Positions 443-41,274 of a stretch of DNA of 64,000 bases are shown here, in pieces (positions within the stretch are counted from its first letter, which is position 1; each line of letters starts with the position of its first letter). The stretch is from the NCBI RefSeq assembly GCF_024502345.1, contig NZ_JALDNN010000001.1; one strand, given 5' to 3'. The translations under genes and the position numbers were made by a program. This stretch comes from Escherichia coli. GTDB lineage: Bacteria; Pseudomonadota; Gammaproteobacteria; Enterobacterales; Enterobacteriaceae. The notes under the pieces were generated by a model. It ran no database searches, was not told where the DNA came from, and saw only the letters and a list, made by a program, of their open reading frames with translations.

Positions 443-2779
443 ATGAAGCAAATTCGTCTGCTGGCGCAGTATTATGTTGACCTGATGATGAAGTTAGGTC
501 TGGTGCGCTTCTCAATGTTGCTGGCGCTGGCCCTCGTCGTTCTTGCCATTGTGGTACAAATGGCGGTAACCATGGTGCTGCATGGTCAGGTCGAAAGCAT
601 TGATGTTATTCGTTCTATCTTCTTTGGTTTGCTGATTACGCCGTGGGCGGTCTACTTTCTATCGGTGGTCGTCGAGCAACTGGAGGAGTCACGACAACGT
701 CTGTCACGGCTGGTGCAAAAACTGGAGGAGATGCGCGAGCGCGATTTGAGCCTCAACGTTCAGTTAAAAGATAATATTGCCCAGCTAAATCAGGAAATTG
801 CCGTTCGTGAAAAAGCGGAAGCAGAACTGCAGGAAACCTTCGGCCAACTGAAAATTGAAATCAAAGAGCGCGAAGAGACACAAATTCAGCTCGAGCAGCA
901 ATCCTCATTCTTACGTTCCTTCCTTGATGCTTCACCCGACCTGGTTTTTTATCGTAACGAAGATAAAGAGTTTTCCGGCTGTAACCGCGCGATGGAGCTG
1001 CTGACCGGAAAAAGCGAAAAACAACTGGTTCATCTGAAACCTGCTGATGTTTACTCACCGGAAGCCGCTGCGAAAGTCATTGAAACCGATGAAAAAGTGT
1101 TCCGTCATAATGTGTCACTGACCTATGAACAGTGGCTGGATTACCCGGACGGGCGCAAAGCCTGCTTTGAAATCCGTAAAGTGCCGTACTACGACCGCGT
1201 GGGTAAACGTCACGGTTTGATGGGCTTTGGTCGCGACATTACCGAGCGTAAGCGGTATCAGGATGCGCTTGAACGGGCCAGCCGCGACAAAACGACGTTT
1301 ATCTCCACCATCAGTCACGAATTGCGTACACCGCTGAACGGTATCGTCGGCCTGAGCCGCATTCTGCTGGATACCGAACTCACCGCCGAGCAGGAAAAAT
1401 ATCTCAAAACTATCCATGTTTCGGCCGTCACGCTGGGGAATATCTTTAACGATATTATCGACATGGATAAGATGGAACGGCGCAAGGTCCAGCTTGATAA
1501 TCAGCCGGTTGATTTCACCAGCTTCCTTGCCGATCTGGAAAATCTCTCCGCATTGCAGGCGCAACAAAAAGGATTGCGCTTTAACCTGGAGCCTACGCTG
1601 CCATTACCGCATCAGGTCATTACCGACGGGACGCGTTTACGGCAGATCCTGTGGAACCTCATCAGTAACGCCGTCAAATTCACCCAGCAAGGCCAGGTTA
1701 CCGTGCGCGTGCGCTACGATGAAGGCGATATGCTGCATTTTGAAGTGGAAGACTCTGGTATCGGCATTCCGCAGGATGAGCTGGATAAAATCTTCGCCAT
1801 GTATTACCAGGTGAAAGACAGTCATGGCGGTAAACCTGCCACCGGCACCGGTATTGGTCTGGCCGTTTCTCGTCGTCTGGCGAAAAATATGGGCGGCGAT
1901 ATTACGGTTACCAGCGAACAGGGCAAAGGTTCAACCTTTACGTTGACGATCCACGCACCGTCGGTGGCAGAAGAGGTCGATGATGCGTTTGATGAAGACG
2001 ATATGCCTTTACCGGCGCTGAATGTGCTACTGGTGGAAGACATTGAACTGAACGTGATTGTTGCGCGTTCTGTGCTGGAAAAATTAGGTAACAGCGTTGA
2101 TGTCGCCATGACCGGCAAGGCGGCGCTGGAGATGTTTAAACCGGGCGAATACGACCTGGTGTTGCTGGATATTCAGTTGCCAGATATGACCGGGCTGGAT
2201 ATCTCTCGTGAACTGACGAAGCGTTATCCGCGCGAGGATTTACCGCCGCTGGTGGCCTTAACCGCTAACGTGCTGAAAGACAAACAAGAGTACCTCAATG
2301 CTGGAATGGATGATGTGCTGAGTAAGCCGCTTTCTGTTCCGGCGCTAACCGCGATGATCAAGAAATTCTGGGATACCCAGGATGATGAGGAGAGTACGGT
2401 GACGACAGAAGAGAACAGTAAATCAGAAGCATTGCTCGATATTCCCATGCTGGAACAGTATCTCGAACTTGTAGGACCGAAGCTGATCACCGACGGGTTA
2501 GCGGTGTTTGAGAAGATGATGCCAGGCTATGTCAGCGTGCTGGAGTCGAATCTGACGGCGCAGGATAAAAAAGGCATTGTTGAGGAAGGACATAAAATTA
2601 AAGGTGCGGCGGGGTCAGTGGGGTTACGCCATCTGCAACAGCTGGGTCAGCAAATTCAGTCTCCTGACCTTCCTGCCTGGGAAGATAACGTCGGTGAATG
2701 GATTGAAGAGATGAAAGAAGAGTGGCGTCACGACGTAGAAGTGCTGAAAGCGTGGGTGGCAAAAGCCACTAAAAAATGA
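443..2779 (+). CDS. arcB: aerobic respiration control sensor kinase ArcB
   Basis: 778 aa; N-terminal membrane segment, H-box (SHELRTPLN), ATPase, receiver and HPt regions; length and sequence as recalled for ArcB. Confidence 0.97.
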   Translation: MKQIRLLAQYYVDLMMKLGLVRFSMLLALALVVLAIVVQMAVTMVLHGQVESIDVIRSIFFGLLITPWAVYFLSVVVEQLEESRQRLSRLVQKLEEMRERDLSLNVQLKDNIAQLNQEIAVREKAEAELQETFGQLKIEIKEREETQIQLEQQSSFLRSFLDASPDLVFYRNEDKEFSGCNRAMELLTGKSEKQLVHLKPADVYSPEAAAKVIETDEKVFRHNVSLTYEQWLDYPDGRKACFEIRKVPYYDRVGKRHGLMGFGRDITERKRYQDALERASRDKTTFISTISHELRTPLNGIVGLSRILLDTELTAEQEKYLKTIHVSAVTLGNIFNDIIDMDKMERRKVQLDNQPVDFTSFLADLENLSALQAQQKGLRFNLEPTLPLPHQVITDGTRLRQILWNLISNAVKFTQQGQVTVRVRYDEGDMLHFEVEDSGIGIPQDELDKIFAMYYQVKDSHGGKPATGTGIGLAVSRRLAKNMGGDITVTSEQGKGSTFTLTIHAPSVAEEVDDAFDEDDMPLPALNVLLVEDIELNVIVARSVLEKLGNSVDVAMTGKAALEMFKPGEYDLVLLDIQLPDMTGLDISRELTKRYPREDLPPLVALTANVLKDKQEYLNAGMDDVLSKPLSVPALTAMIKKFWDTQDDEESTVTTEENSKSEALLDIPMLEQYLELVGPKLITDGLAVFEKMMPGYVSVLESNLTAQDKKGIVEEGHKIKGAAGSVGLRHLQQLGQQIQSPDLPAWEDNVGEWIEEMKEEWRHDVEVLKAWVAKATKK

Positions 2780-2891
2780 CCCCGGCTAGACCGGGGTGCG
2801 CGAATACTGCGCCAACACCAGGGAAATCTTGGCTGCGCCGTAAATTATTATGATGAGTTACAAGGGCACAGCACTGTTTTTCAGGCCGCAC
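2771..2891 (-). ncRNA. arcZ: ArcZ small RNA (SraH/RyhA)
   Basis: 121 nt; reverse complement reads GTGCGGCCTGAAAAACAGTGCTG...GGTCTAGCCGGGGTCATTTTTT, matching ArcZ as I recall it; 3' hairpin plus U-tract at 2771-2798 overlaps the arcB stop. Confidence 0.85.
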
Positions 2892-3008
2892 GCAGTTAAG
2901 ATAGCAAAACTTAAATGATTTGTTACATGAATCAGTTAAATGTGTGATGCGTACCATTTTTATTAAAAAAATTAATGTGTTTCAGTCAATTGCGAAAGGA
3001 TGATCACA

Positions 3009-3662
3009 ATGAAGAAAATTGGCGTAATTCTGAGCGGATGCGGCGTCTATGACGGTTCTGAAATTCATGAAGCGGTGTTGACGTTGTTAGCTATTTCACG
3101 CAGCGGTGCGCAGGCGGTCTGCTTTGCACCGGATAAGCAGCAGGTTGATGTTATCAACCATTTAACTGGCGAAGCGATGACGGAAACGCGCAACGTGCTG
3201 ATTGAAGCGGCACGAATAACGCGCGGTGAAATCCGTCCTCTGGCCCAGGCCGATGCCGCTGAACTGGATGCGTTGATTGTGCCGGGGGGGTTTGGCGCGG
3301 CGAAGAATTTAAGCAATTTTGCCACTCTTGGTAGCGAATGCACCGTTGACCGTGAATTAAAGGCGCTGGCACAAGCGATGCATCAGGCCGGAAAACCGCT
3401 TGGTTTTATGTGTATTGCCCCGGCGATGCTGCCGAAAATTTTCGATTTCCCGCTGCGTTTGACCATCGGTACTGATATCGATACCGCAGAAGTGCTGGAA
3501 GAGATGGGCGCGGAGCATGTGCCGTGTCCTGTCGATGATATCGTGGTTGATGAAGACAATAAGATTGTCACCACCCCAGCATATATGCTGGCGCAGAACA
3601 TTGCAGAAGCGGCGAGCGGCATTGATAAGCTGGTTTCCCGCGTGCTGGTTCTGGCTGAATGA
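3009..3662 (+). CDS. elbB: glyoxalase ElbB (DJ-1/PfpI-like)
   Basis: 217 aa from ATG at 3009 (track ORF starts 9 nt earlier); [21 protein letters not shown]. Confidence 0.9.
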
Positions 3663-4387
3663 GTAAAAGCCGCTTAACGGTGTTTAGTTTCGTTCGCCGT
3701 TTTCTTTTGCGGTTAATGGTTGTCCTCGCCGTTTTCTGGGGCGGGGGCATCGCGTTGTTTAGCGTTGCGCCTGTTCCCTTCTCAGCGGTAATGGTCGAGC
3801 GACAGGTCAGCGCCTGGCTGCATGGCAATTTTCGTTACGTGGCACATTCTGACTGGGTCAGTATGGATCAAATCTCGCCGTGGATGGGACTGGCGGTGAT
3901 TGCCGCAGAAGATCAGAAATTTCCTGAGCACTGGGGCTTTGATGTCGCTTCCATTGAGAAAGCCCTGGCGCACAATGAGCGCAATGAAAACCGTATTCGC
4001 GGTGCTTCAACGATTTCTCAACAGACAGCCAAAAATCTCTTTTTATGGGATGGGCGTAGCTGGGTTCGAAAAGGGCTGGAAGCCGGATTAACGCTGGGGA
4101 TAGAAACTGTCTGGAGCAAAAAGCGTATCCTGACGGTTTACCTGAATATCGCCGAATTTGGCGACGGTGTGTTTGGCGTCGAAGCTGCGGCACAACGTTA
4201 TTTCCACAAACCCGCGAGCAAACTTACCCGATCGGAAGCTGCCTTACTGGCAGCTGTATTACCTAATCCACTTCGTTTCAAAGTCTCCGCGCCATCGGGC
4301 TACGTGCGCAGCCGTCAGGCGTGGATTTTACGGCAGATGTATCAGTTAGGCGGTGAGCCGTTTATGCAACAACACCAGCTGGATTAA
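3659..4387 (+). CDS. mtgA: monofunctional peptidoglycan glycosyltransferase MtgA
   Basis: 242 aa; transglycosylase motifs; 4-nt overlap with elbB stop. Confidence 0.92.
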
Positions 4388-5016
4388 GCTTCGCGCGAAG
4401 CGAGGGCCAGCGTTTTGCTCTCACGAGGTTGCAGATCTTTCTGCAGGGCAATAGCCAGCGCCGGTTGGGCGATAAATCGTTTCCACAACCGCTCTTGCTT
4501 ACGCAGACAACACCACTTTGACCAGGTCGCCAGTGGAATCAATGTGCTTTCACCAATGTTGTCGCAGACAACGGGGATAACCTCTGACTCACTAATGCGG
4601 TGACAGAGGATATTCTGCGGCTTCAGCGACATCGTCACGATACGGTTATCCTGCAAATAACACTTCAGATGTTTCAGTAACTGGCGCAGTTGTGCAACGT
4701 CTTCTTCGTAACGGCATTGTTCAGCAAATTCGGTCAGCGTAATGGAGGGCTTGCCGTCAAAATCGGCAATCACATCGTAGACATAACCGGTTCCGCAATC
4801 CGTCTCAACGGTACCGTGATAGCGCGGTATTCCACTCCAGTCTTTTAACCGGCGACCAAGATGCGCGTAGTACTTTAACTCACGACGGATCTCTTTATCG
4901 CCACCATCGCCACGATGGTAGACAATCTTGATACAGCGTTGGGCATCTTCCGGATGCGCATAACATTTCCGATGTCTTCCGGTGCCCAGGGGACTTTGTT
5001 CAGATAAGCGAATCAT
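4384..5016 (-). CDS. yrbL: protein YrbL
   Basis: 210 aa ORF, convergent with mtgA; sequence and position as in K-12. Confidence 0.85.
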
Positions 5017-5229
5017 GCCATCTCCTGGAAATATTTTCTGACGATCTCCAGTATGGTCGATTAACTTAAACGAAACCTAAACAATGCTTCTTAAGGTTTT
5101 CTTAAGGTTCTTCTGAAAGTAAAAAGCGCACGAAATGTACAATTGACGTTGATTGAGAACGATTTCAGTACGTGATTTTCTTATTGTCGGGGGGAGTTTG
5201 AAGGGAGTTGTATGTCAAAGTGATGAAGA

Positions 5230-5502
5230 TTAATCTTCATCAAAACCAGAATTAAAGAGGGCGATAACGGCGGCCAGTGCTTCCTCTTCCTGTGGACCGG
5301 TCGCTTCAACTTCAATCTGCCGCCCTTTGGCAGAATCCAACATCAGCAGCGCAATAACGCTGTTGGCTTCAGCCTCGGTGCCTTCGTCATTACGTAACAG
5401 CACTTCAGCGTCAAAACCCTGCATTAATTCAAACAGCTTCATTGCAGGCCGGGCATGCATGCCCAGCTTGTTTGTGATTTCAACAGTTTGCTTGACGGTC
5501 AT
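5230..5502 (-). CDS. npr: phosphocarrier protein NPr
   Basis: 90 aa HPr-like protein ([10 protein letters not shown]); last gene of the rpoN operon. Confidence 0.93.
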
Positions 5503-24360: not shown

Positions 24361-24607
24361 AATCTCGCGCTAACAACCTGGAATCGAGCCGTCATACTAC
24401 GGCGCAACGCCCTATAAAGTAAACGATGACCCTTCGGGAACTTCAGGGTAAAATGACTATCAAAATGTGAATTGTAGCTGACCTGGGACTTGTACCCGGG
24501 TCGGTATTTTTTTGCTTCTGGTCCCGGTGAGGAGTTATGCCGGGCAGGCCGAACAGCCGGGGTGGGTGAAGACTTGCCCCATCAGGAATATTCAAGAGGT
24601 ATAACAA

Positions 24608-31164: not shown

Positions 31165-31251
31165 GCCGAGGTGGTGGAATTGGTAGACACGCTACCTTGA
31201 GGTGGTAGTGCCCAATAGGGCTTACGGGTTCAAGTCCCGTCCTCGGTACCA
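31165..31251 (+). tRNA. leuU: tRNA-Leu (anticodon GAG)
   Basis: 87 nt; acceptor stem GCCGAGG/CCTCGGT, anticodon loop CTTGAGG, long variable arm, 3' CCA encoded. Confidence 0.9.
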
Positions 31252-34153: not shown

Positions 34154-34230
<77 letters not shown>

Positions 34231-34351
34231 CTTTCCCTTAGAGTCCTTTTTCAAATATACTGTGAAGACTTCGGCCTTCGTAGTGGGATTTGAAAAAATC
34301 CTTCTGGAAAGTGCTCCAGACCGCAGTTGCGGTTATAGGGTTCAGTTATAT

Positions 34352-34378
34352 AAAGCCCCGATTTATCGGGGTTTTTTG
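34352..34378 (+). terminator. terminator/attenuator-like hairpin between metY and rimP
   Basis: AAAGCCCCGATTTATCGGGGTTTTTTG; a second weaker hairpin plus T7 run follows at about 34398-34420. Confidence 0.5.
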
Positions 34379-34436
34379 TTATCTGACTACAGAATAACTG
34401 GGCTTTAGGCCCTTTTTTTATGTCTTGGGGGTGGGC

Positions 34437-34916: not shown

Positions 34917-36404
<1,488 letters not shown>

Positions 36405-36428
36405 TAAACTGTAGCAGGAAGGAACAGC

Positions 36429-39101
36429 ATGACAGATGTAACGATTAAAACGCTGGCCGCAGAGCGACAGACCTCCGTGGAACGCCTGGTACAGCAATTT
36501 GCTGATGCAGGTATCCGGAAGTCTGCTGACGACTCTGTGTCTGCACAAGAGAAACAGACTTTGATTGACCACCTGAATCAGAAAAATTCAGGCCCGGACA
36601 AATTGACGCTGCAACGTAAAACACGCAGCACCCTTAACATTCCTGGTACCGGTGGAAAAAGCAAATCGGTACAAATCGAAGTCCGCAAGAAACGCACCTT
36701 TGTGAAACGCGATCCGCAAGAGGCTGAACGCCTTGCAGCGGAAGAGCAAGCGCAGCGTGAAGCGGAAGAGCAAGCCCGTCGTGAGGCAGAAGAATCGGCT
36801 AAACGCGAGGCGCAACAAAAAGCTGAACGTGAGGCCGCAGAACAAGCTAAGCGTGAAGCTGCTGAACAAGCGAAACGTGAAGCTGCGGAAAAAGACAAAG
36901 TGAGCAATCAACAAGACGATATGACTAAAAACGCCCAGGCTGAAAAAGCCCGCCGTGAGCAGGAAGCTGCAGAGCTCAAGCGTAAAGCTGAAGAAGAAGC
37001 GCGTCGTAAACTCGAAGAAGAAGCACGTCGCGTTGCTGAAGAAGCACGTCGTATGGCGGAAGAAAACAAATGGACTGATAACGCGGAACCGACTGAAGAT
37101 TCCAGCGATTATCACGTCACTACTTCTCAACATGCTCGCCAGGCAGAAGACGAAAGCGATCGTGAAGTCGAAGGCGGCCGTGGCCGTGGTCGTAACGCGA
37201 AAGCAGCGCGTCCGAAGAAAGGCAACAAACACGCTGAATCAAAAGCTGATCGTGAAGAAGCACGCGCAGCAGTACGTGGCGGTAAAGGCGGAAAACGTAA
37301 AGGTTCTTCCCTGCAGCAAGGCTTCCAGAAGCCTGCTCAGGCCGTTAACCGTGACGTTGTGATCGGCGAAACCATCACCGTTGGCGAACTGGCGAACAAG
37401 ATGGCGGTTAAAGGCTCTCAGGTCATCAAAGCGATGATGAAACTGGGCGCAATGGCAACCATCAACCAGGTTATCGATCAGGAAACCGCACAGCTGGTTG
37501 CTGAAGAGATGGGCCACAAAGTTATCCTGCGTCGTGAAAACGAGCTGGAAGAGGCGGTAATGAGCGACCGTGACACGGGTGCTGCGGCTGAACCGCGCGC
37601 GCCGGTTGTGACCATCATGGGTCACGTTGACCACGGTAAAACCTCTCTGCTGGACTACATTCGTTCAACGAAAGTTGCCTCTGGCGAAGCGGGCGGCATT
37701 ACCCAGCACATTGGTGCATACCACGTTGAAACTGAAAACGGCATGATCACCTTCCTGGACACCCCGGGGCACGCCGCGTTTACTTCAATGCGTGCACGTG
37801 GTGCGCAGGCAACGGACATCGTAGTCCTGGTTGTTGCTGCCGACGACGGCGTGATGCCGCAGACCATCGAAGCAATCCAGCACGCGAAAGCGGCGCAGGT
37901 ACCGGTGGTGGTTGCAGTGAACAAGATTGATAAACCAGAAGCCGATCCGGATCGTGTTAAGAACGAACTCTCCCAGTATGGCATCCTGCCGGAAGAGTGG
38001 GGCGGTGAAAGCCAGTTCGTACACGTATCTGCGAAAGCGGGTACCGGCATCGATGAACTGCTGGACGCTATCCTGCTGCAGGCGGAAGTTCTGGAGCTGA
38101 AAGCGGTACGTAAAGGTATGGCGAGCGGTGCGGTTATCGAATCCTTCCTCGATAAAGGTCGTGGTCCGGTTGCTACCGTTCTGGTACGTGAAGGTACTCT
38201 GCACAAGGGCGATATCGTTCTGTGTGGCTTCGAATACGGTCGTGTTCGTGCGATGCGTAACGAACTGGGTCAGGAAGTGCTGGAAGCGGGTCCGTCCATT
38301 CCGGTGGAAATCCTCGGCCTGTCCGGCGTACCGGCTGCGGGTGATGAAGTTACCGTTGTACGTGACGAGAAGAAAGCGCGTGAAGTTGCACTGTATCGTC
38401 AGGGTAAATTCCGCGAAGTTAAACTGGCGCGTCAGCAGAAATCTAAACTCGAGAACATGTTCGCCAACATGACCGAAGGCGAAGTTCACGAAGTGAACAT
38501 TGTCCTGAAGGCAGACGTACAGGGTTCTGTGGAAGCGATCTCCGACTCCTTGCTGAAACTGTCTACTGACGAAGTTAAAGTGAAGATCATCGGTTCTGGC
38601 GTAGGTGGTATCACCGAAACCGACGCCACCCTGGCTGCGGCGTCCAACGCCATCCTGGTTGGCTTTAATGTACGTGCTGATGCCTCTGCACGTAAAGTGA
38701 TTGAAGCGGAAAGCCTGGATCTGCGTTACTACTCCGTCATCTATAACCTGATCGACGAAGTGAAAGCGGCAATGAGCGGTATGCTGTCTCCGGAACTGAA
38801 ACAACAGATTATCGGTCTGGCGGAAGTTCGTGACGTATTCAAATCACCGAAATTTGGTGCCATTGCAGGTTGTATGGTTACCGAAGGTGTGGTTAAACGT
38901 CACAACCCGATCCGCGTTCTGCGCGACAACGTGGTTATCTACGAAGGCGAGCTGGAGTCCCTGCGCCGCTTCAAAGATGACGTTAACGAAGTCCGTAACG
39001 GTATGGAATGTGGTATCGGCGTTAAGAACTACAACGATGTCCGCACTGGCGATGTGATCGAAGTATTCGAGATCATCGAAATCCAACGTACCATCGCTTA
39101 A
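36429..39101 (+). CDS. infB: translation initiation factor IF-2
   Basis: 890 aa; repetitive [11 protein letters not shown]-terminal region, G domain ([18 protein letters not shown]). Confidence 0.97.
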
Positions 39102-39114
39102 GGTTGTCTGGGTT

Positions 39115-39188
39115 GTAGGCCGGATAAGGCTTTTACGCCGCATCCGGCAGCCGTTGCCTGATGTGACGCTGGCGCGTCTTATCAGGCC
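39115..39188. repeat. REP (repetitive extragenic palindrome) pair
   Basis: GTAGGCCGGATAAGGC...ACGCCGCATCCGGCA and GCCTGATGTGACGCTGGCGCGTCTTATCAGGCC. Confidence 0.7.
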
Positions 39189-40662: not shown

Positions 40663-41137
<475 letters not shown>

Positions 41138-41274
41138 AGGTTCGCGCGGCTAATGAGAGGCTTTACCCACATTGGGCTGGGTTAGGGTTGTCATTAGTCG
41201 CGAGGATGCGCAGAAGATCGGGTATTAACACCAGTGCCGTAAGGTACTGTCTAAGAAAGAGAAAGGATATTACA

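Follow-up and report, generated by a model that had tools for sequence, protein, structure and literature searches.

Tandem translation of infB, by which one gene gives rise to IF2-1, IF2-2 and IF2-3, was reportedly worked out in E. coli K-12 by Plumbridge et al. in 1985, Nyengaard et al. in 1991 and Sacerdot et al. in 1992, and intracistronic initiation within infB is said to have been described for enterobacteria by Laursen et al. in 2002 (Genes Cells 7:901). The same principle, a second ribosome entry within a coding sequence that yields an isoform without the N-terminal domain, is found in clpB, mrcB, cheA and speA and in the alpha and beta forms encoded by infB of B. subtilis. What sets infB apart is its pair of closely spaced internal starts, 21 nt from each other.

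The three forms of IF2 begin at codons 1, 158 (GUG) and 165 (AUG) (PMC13245402; 10.1101/2021.11.18.469101); IF2-2 and IF2-3 are named beta and gamma or, alternatively, beta and beta-prime, and the internal starts fall between the two IF2_N copies of the protein (Margus et al. 2007). The change g474c, in the third base of codon 158, abolishes IF2-2, and t494c, in the second base of codon 165, abolishes IF2-3 (Madison et al. 2012; PMC3334882). The del1 allele, a deletion that begins 14 nt before AUG1 and stops 32 nt short of GUG158, still makes short IF2; internal initiation is therefore independent of the primary start and relies on a compact cis element (PMC3334882). Ribosome profiling, which the initial annotation of the present locus had proposed as a check, was already available from Meydan et al., whose Ribo-RET data show well-defined peaks in both BW25113 and BL21 at the infB internal site that had been verified earlier (10.1101/520783). 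Deformylation-assisted N-terminomics, which aims at initiator N-termini, places infB in the group of genes whose peptides point to two or three in-frame starts (PMC13245402), and a homologous pair of IF2 proteoforms was seen in Salmonella (PMC11005335).

All IF2 isoforms support translation, and cells grow optimally only when both size classes are present. Published work ties the balance of IF2-1 to IF2-2/3 to optimal and cold growth, and replication restart, recombination and the repair of double-strand breaks are influenced by it as well. Cold shock raises both alpha and beta IF2 (PMC6511841). Loss of IF2-1 or an excess of IF2-2/3 leads to sensitivity to two-ended double-strand breaks, and IF2-3 overexpressed alone reproduces the recombination and double-strand-break phenotypes (Mallikarjun and Gowrishankar; 10.1101/2021.11.18.469101).

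The window (i.e., the whole stretch of 64,000 nt of E. coli DNA that was analyzed) carries infB within the canonical gene order metY-rimP-nusA-infB-rbfA-truB-rpsO-pnp, which is the same in K-12; the domain architecture of IF2 and the nusA-infB-rbfA synteny both identify the gene as the infB orthologue. The coordinates of the features are given in Table 1. Regarding the domains found with Pfam, the protein contains two copies of IF2_N (the top-scoring one at residues 314-364, the other at the N-terminus), IF2_assoc (residues 56-94), GTP_EFTU, EF-G_D2, IF-2 and GTP_EFTU_D2, with the G domain at residues 393-549 followed by the C-terminal domains. The structure PDB 1ND9 represents the IF2 N-terminal domain (residues 2-50), a part that is absent from the short forms. 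The translated protein is identical to IF2 of K-12 MG1655 at 890 of 890 positions, and the DNA identity of the gene with K-12-type strains is about 99.0%, with synonymous differences only, none of them at or near the internal starts.

Table 1. Features of the infB region of the window
Feature	Position	Strand	Basis and remarks
metY, initiator tRNA-Met, first gene of the metY-rimP-nusA-infB operon	34154..34230	+	ARAGORN, Rfam, K-12 annotation
nusA, directly upstream of infB	34917..36404	+	ORF list; the identical locus is annotated in this way in K-12 and L002
Shine-Dalgarno-like AGGAAGGA of the primary infB start	36416..36423	+	Anti-SD duplex of -6.5 kcal/mol
infB CDS, full-length IF2-1 (IF2 alpha), 890 aa	36429..39101	+	Starts with ATG, 890 codons, stop TAA; ORF list and translation
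24-nt (8-aa) tandem repeats, (A)EQAKREA-type	36737..36894	+	Tandem Repeats Finder rows 36737-36793 and 36780-36894, period 24
Block GCGGAAAAAGACAAAGTGAGCAATCAA, codons 153-161, putative internal translation-initiation region	36885..36911	+	Nucleotide-level conservation, 27 nt
GTG, codon 158, start of IF2-2 (IF2 beta)	36900..36902	+	IF2-2 CDS 36900-39101, 733 aa
ATG, codon 165, start of IF2-3 (IF2 beta-prime/gamma)	36921..36923	+	IF2-3 CDS 36921-39101, 726 aa
Second tandem repeat set, 24/21-nt, EEEARRK-type, downstream of the internal starts	36981..37064	+	Tandem Repeats Finder

The initial annotation had placed an in-frame GTG at codon 158 and an in-frame ATG at codon 165, and both positions proved exact when compared with the sequence and the open reading frame. 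It had further equated the two codons with the internal starts of K-12 and suggested an alignment with K-12 infB as a check; around both sites 211 of 211 nt are identical to NC_000913.3, which together with the identical protein and the K-12 annotation bears out the match. In the K-12 RefSeq record NC_000913.3, the locus b3168 has three infB CDSs that start at codons 1, 158 and 165; YP_010283915.1 begins at the base homologous to GTG158 (record position 3315543) and YP_010283916.1 at codon 165 (record position 3315522). The attribution of shorter isoforms to GUG158 and AUG165 is backed by these three CDSs and by the papers cited above. Protein, 211-nt region, codon numbers (158 GTG and 165 ATG) and operon context are thus all shared with the K-12 system, and it is close to certain that the window carries E. 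coli infB with its two well-characterized internal in-frame starts in the canonical tandem-translation arrangement; no feature of the sequence speaks against this. Both codons and their flanks are intact, as the claim of a preserved arrangement demands, and from the sequence identity the strain would be expected to use both starts and to keep the capacity for all three IF2 isoforms.

The presence of GTG158 and ATG165 alone is within chance, as they are two of 44 in-frame NTG codons (21 ATG, 20 GTG and 3 TTG) across infB. The two sites stand out among the 44 because of their exact position and their sequence identity with the characterized K-12 sites, together with their conservation and accessibility. 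Accessibility was computed as the mean unpaired probability over the positions -20 to +15, using partition-function folding in sliding windows of 150 nt. Codons 165 and 158 have predicted unpaired probabilities of 0.65 and 0.61, respectively (gene mean 0.41, standard deviation 0.085), which rank first and second among the 44 in-frame NTG codons and correspond to percentiles of 98.8 and 97.3 among all codons of infB. Regarding the pairing with the 3' end of the 16S rRNA, the duplex energy was -3.5 kcal/mol at GTG158 (rank 10 of 44) and -1.9 kcal/mol at ATG165 (rank 29 of 44), and no strong SD/anti-SD pairing was found 5-10 nt upstream of either codon; SD strength was therefore rejected as evidence for both sites. 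The anti-SD duplex of the primary start ranks second among the 44. With pairing this weak, neither internal site would be singled out by a motif scan on its own.

For comparison across species, a degenerate DNA pattern encoding the conserved peptide QQFADAGI, which lies 130 codons before codon 158, was run against GTDB species genomes. At least 120 loci were obtained, and 77 of those among the matches listed had usable infB 5' halves; about 40 matches (Flavobacterium, Syntrophomonadaceae and others) represented chance hits or other proteins and were filtered out. The Enterobacterales set was defined by taxonomy and comprises 52 sequences among the matches listed (the window and 51 scanned species), 50 of which bear the codon-158 motif. 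The subset initially used for synonymous constraint had been defined by the presence of the motif, a circular choice, and the analysis was redone with the taxonomy-based set of 52; two Budvicia species were the only difference between the two sets, and the conclusion was unchanged.

The equivalent of codon 158 was GTG in 47 and TTG in three (Acerihabitans, 'Enterobacter' BIGb0383 and Ca. Steffania) of the 52 Enterobacterales among the matches listed; in the TTG cases valine is replaced by leucine and a start codon is kept. The codons GTA, GTC and GTT did not occur at this position in any of the 52, whereas GTG makes up about 25% of the valine codons in these gene segments. The codon-158 motif was missing from the two Budvicia species. 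The synonymous sites of codons 153-161 (GCG GAA AAA GAY AAA GTG AGC AAT CAA) are almost invariant in the 50 motif-bearing orthologues listed: Ala153 is encoded by GCG in 49/50, Glu154 by GAA in 50/50, Lys157 by AAA in 47/47, Val158 by GTG in 47/47 and Ser159 by AGC in 27/27. The alanine codons flanking the block make use of all four codons (entropy 1.3-2.0 bits). Among 62 conserved four-fold-degenerate columns of the Enterobacterales listed, for which the median major-codon fraction was 0.53, Val158 and Ala153 are within the four most codon-invariant ones; the other highly invariant columns lie mostly near the primary start (codons 2-6 and 25). Constraint on the start codon and its flanking nucleotides thus exceeds what protein coding would call for in the Enterobacterales among the matches listed, and start codon 158 with its short flanking block is, as judged from this comparison, under nucleotide-level selection throughout the Enterobacterales sampled. 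(Note that beyond Enterobacterales the aligned codon varies freely, with leucine, alanine and others, and that the low-complexity linker aligns poorly and unreliably there; the poorly aligning Rheinheimera, Alishewanella, Arsukibacterium, Gilliamella, Photobacterium and Alteromonadales genera were left out of the claims.)

The second internal start is distributed differently. ATG was found at the equivalent of codon 165 in 34 of the 52 Enterobacterales among the matches listed; of the 50 motif-bearing orthologues listed, 16 lack it (18 if all 52 are counted), and GTG takes its place in two of these 16. Photorhabdus, Xenorhabdus, Moellerella, Morganella and Arsenophonus, among the matches listed, have no start codon there, and ATG165 is kept across the Enterobacteriaceae, Erwiniaceae and Pectobacteriaceae sampled despite indels between the two starts. 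With ATG165 missing in 16 of 50 motif-bearing orthologues, IF2-3 is not a universal requirement. The variants within Enterobacterales are thus the three species with TTG, Budvicia without the motif and the Morganellaceae-type genera without the ATG, and the window represents the canonical form.

Taken together, these observations can tentatively be read as a largely SD-independent entry site, an A-rich block of about 27 nt (GCGGAAAAAGAYAAAGTGAGCAATCAA), in which the start codon itself is selected, with AUG165 as a younger, lineage-restricted addition and IF2-3 as an evolvable extra; this combined reading is somewhat short of an even chance. Quite apart from it, three independent ribosome initiations on one infB mRNA yield IF2-1 (alpha, 890 aa) from AUG1, IF2-2 (beta, 733 aa) from GUG158 and IF2-3 (beta-prime/gamma, 726 aa) from AUG165. 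Missing from the short forms are the first IF2_N, IF2_assoc and the first of the repeat arrays; what remains is the second IF2_N together with the G domain and the C-terminal domains. The internal site, an A-rich unstructured stretch with a weak SD match, would work mainly through its openness; the predicted folding suggests that accessibility, perhaps with the help of ribosomal protein S1, probably matters more for internal initiation than strong SD pairing does, and AUG165, 21 nt downstream of GUG158, probably profits from the open stretch on which ribosomes land for GUG158.

A competing explanation holds that only GUG158 is selected, that initiation at AUG165 is a by-product of the open region and that IF2-3 has no distinct function. 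It is consistent with the narrower distribution of the second start among the matches listed (ATG165 in 34/52 vs GTG or TTG at codon 158 in 50/52 Enterobacterales), including its absence from the five genera named above, with the weaker of the two SD pairings at AUG165, and with the fact that genetic studies mostly pool IF2-2 with IF2-3 (PMC3334882; 10.1101/2021.11.18.469101). However, AUG165 is used in vivo, with IF2-3 documented (PMC13245402) and its removal requiring t494c (PMC3334882); the codon is retained in three families in spite of the indels between the starts, and IF2-3 alone, when overexpressed, gives recombination and double-strand-break phenotypes (10.1101/2021.11.18.469101). A by-product at AUG165 is plausible, though less likely than not.

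Short IF2 could also be translated from a shorter transcript of its own that originates at a promoter or processing site inside infB, and additional cold-responsive internal promoters do exist elsewhere in the nusA-infB operon (PMC6511841). The nusA-infB promoters of that study sit upstream of infB and not inside it, however, and the conserved block lies immediately around the start codon, as for a ribosome-binding region, so that this origin is considered highly improbable. A scan of both strands of the interval 36300-37100 for sigma-70-like promoters found none (0.4 expected); the three terminator-like matches in the same scan lie on the minus strand and are no more than chance would give.

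That short IF2 arises by proteolysis of the full-length protein, GTG and ATG being ordinary valine and methionine codons, would suit a flexible, charged, low-complexity linker and a chance-level two of 44 in-frame start-like codons, but it is scarcely credible and for K-12 is refuted by published work, as synonymous or near-synonymous changes at both codons abolish the short forms and these forms persist after deletion of the primary start (PMC3334882), retapamulin-arrested initiating ribosomes are seen at the internal site (10.1101/520783), N-terminomics targeting initiator N-termini finds infB to be a multi-start gene (PMC13245402), and a GTG that is either fixed or replaced by TTG with a change of amino acid fits selection for a start codon and not for valine.

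The finding of GTG158 and ATG165 in the window is correct and already known, and the result represents the confirmation of a correct annotation and not a discovery. Mildly new are only the GTG to TTG swaps, the synonymous-constrained block of 27 nt and the lineage-restricted ATG165. The comparative pattern probably overlaps with the enterobacterial intracistronic initiation of Laursen et al. (2002); the conserved GTG and its block fit a conserved internal ribosome-binding region. The conservation of start codon and block, together with the lineage restriction of the second start, may help to annotate infB proteoforms beyond E. coli.

Within the species, infB was matched in 5425 of 5426 complete E. 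coli genomes with identities of 98.2-100%. The 121 nt at 36850-36970 show at least 99% identity in 5418 of the 5425 genomes, whereas the entire gene reaches at least 99% identity in 932 complete genomes only. In a sample of ten diverse E. coli alleles no SNPs were observed at nt 418-560 around the internal starts; as the first 750 nt of infB are SNP-poor throughout (9 of 88 SNP columns in the ten alleles), the SNP-free interval was dropped as site-specific evidence, and low SNP density within E. coli is only weakly specific to the internal starts.

The two internal starts had been described as lying inside the repetitive region, which needs correction: Tandem Repeats Finder puts both just downstream of the first array, whose end (36894) precedes GTG158 by 6 nt. 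They are contained in an A-rich, non-repetitive spacer of 86 nt between the two arrays. The most divergent match among the E. coli genomes, strain E5 (from a donkey), has a deletion of 24 nt that corresponds to exactly one repeat unit (codons 142-149); its internal starts are shifted to codons 150 and 157, and both are intact.

Among the listed matches from the scanned species, the equivalent of infB codon 158 was TTG (Leu) in place of GTG (Val) in Acerihabitans arboris (retrieved infB locus L021), Enterobacter sp. BIGb0383 (L024) and "Ca. Steffania adelgidicola" (L111). The residue is altered by this exchange and the start codon is retained, which suggests that selection acts on initiation rather than on the amino acid. 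The equivalent of ATG165 was absent, among the listed matches, from Photorhabdus (L014, L120 and L124), Xenorhabdus (L052), Moellerella (L054), Morganella (L105), Arsenophonus (L090) and Budvicia (L034/L072), the last of which lacks the entire internal-start motif in infB. Genera without an ATG165 equivalent may produce two IF2 isoforms only, or one, or may initiate elsewhere.

Synonymous diversity along infB was strongly uneven among 10 diverse E. coli alleles; 9 of the 88 SNP columns (window 36429-39101) were located in the first 750 nt vs. 79 in the other 1923 nt. The sole amino-acid difference among these alleles was Q490G, a three-base change (CAG to GGT at codon 490) that distinguishes WP_000133044.1 from WP_000133040.1.

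The infB gene of E. coli strain E5, a natural isolate from a donkey host, comprises 882 codons (NZ_CM172488.1; positions 2602-5250 of locus L003). Exactly one AEQAKREA unit is missing (codons 142-149, 24 nt in frame, corresponding to window 36852-36875), and the internal starts are unaltered, now at codons 150 and 157. The loss of this unit suggests repeat-mediated slippage in the IF2 linker.

An infB with an encoded N-terminus identical to that of E. coli was also retrieved from USCO01000192.1 (L051), a 3546-nt contig labeled 'uncultured Clostridiales bacterium UMGS1583'. The likeliest explanation is contamination with E. coli DNA or mis-binning of this contig in the metagenome-assembled genome of UMGS1583.

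The spacer between infB and rbfA yielded an Rfam match to naRNA4/CssrE, a REP-derived nucleoid-associated RNA (39118-39188, plus strand; 76.6 bits vs. a gathering score of 59.5). Other RNA elements and tRNAs are summarized in the table.

Other RNA elements and tRNAs in the window
Feature	Position	Strand	Remark
ArcZ sRNA	2784-2891	-	known RNA element, expected position
greA leader	24391-24512	+	known RNA element, expected position
tRNA-Leu(GAG)	31165-31251		
metY, initiator tRNA	34154-34230		
rimP leader	34319-34419	+	known RNA element, expected position
S15 (rpsO) leader	40701-40815	+	known RNA element, expected position
SraG sRNA	41045-41216	-	known RNA element, expected position
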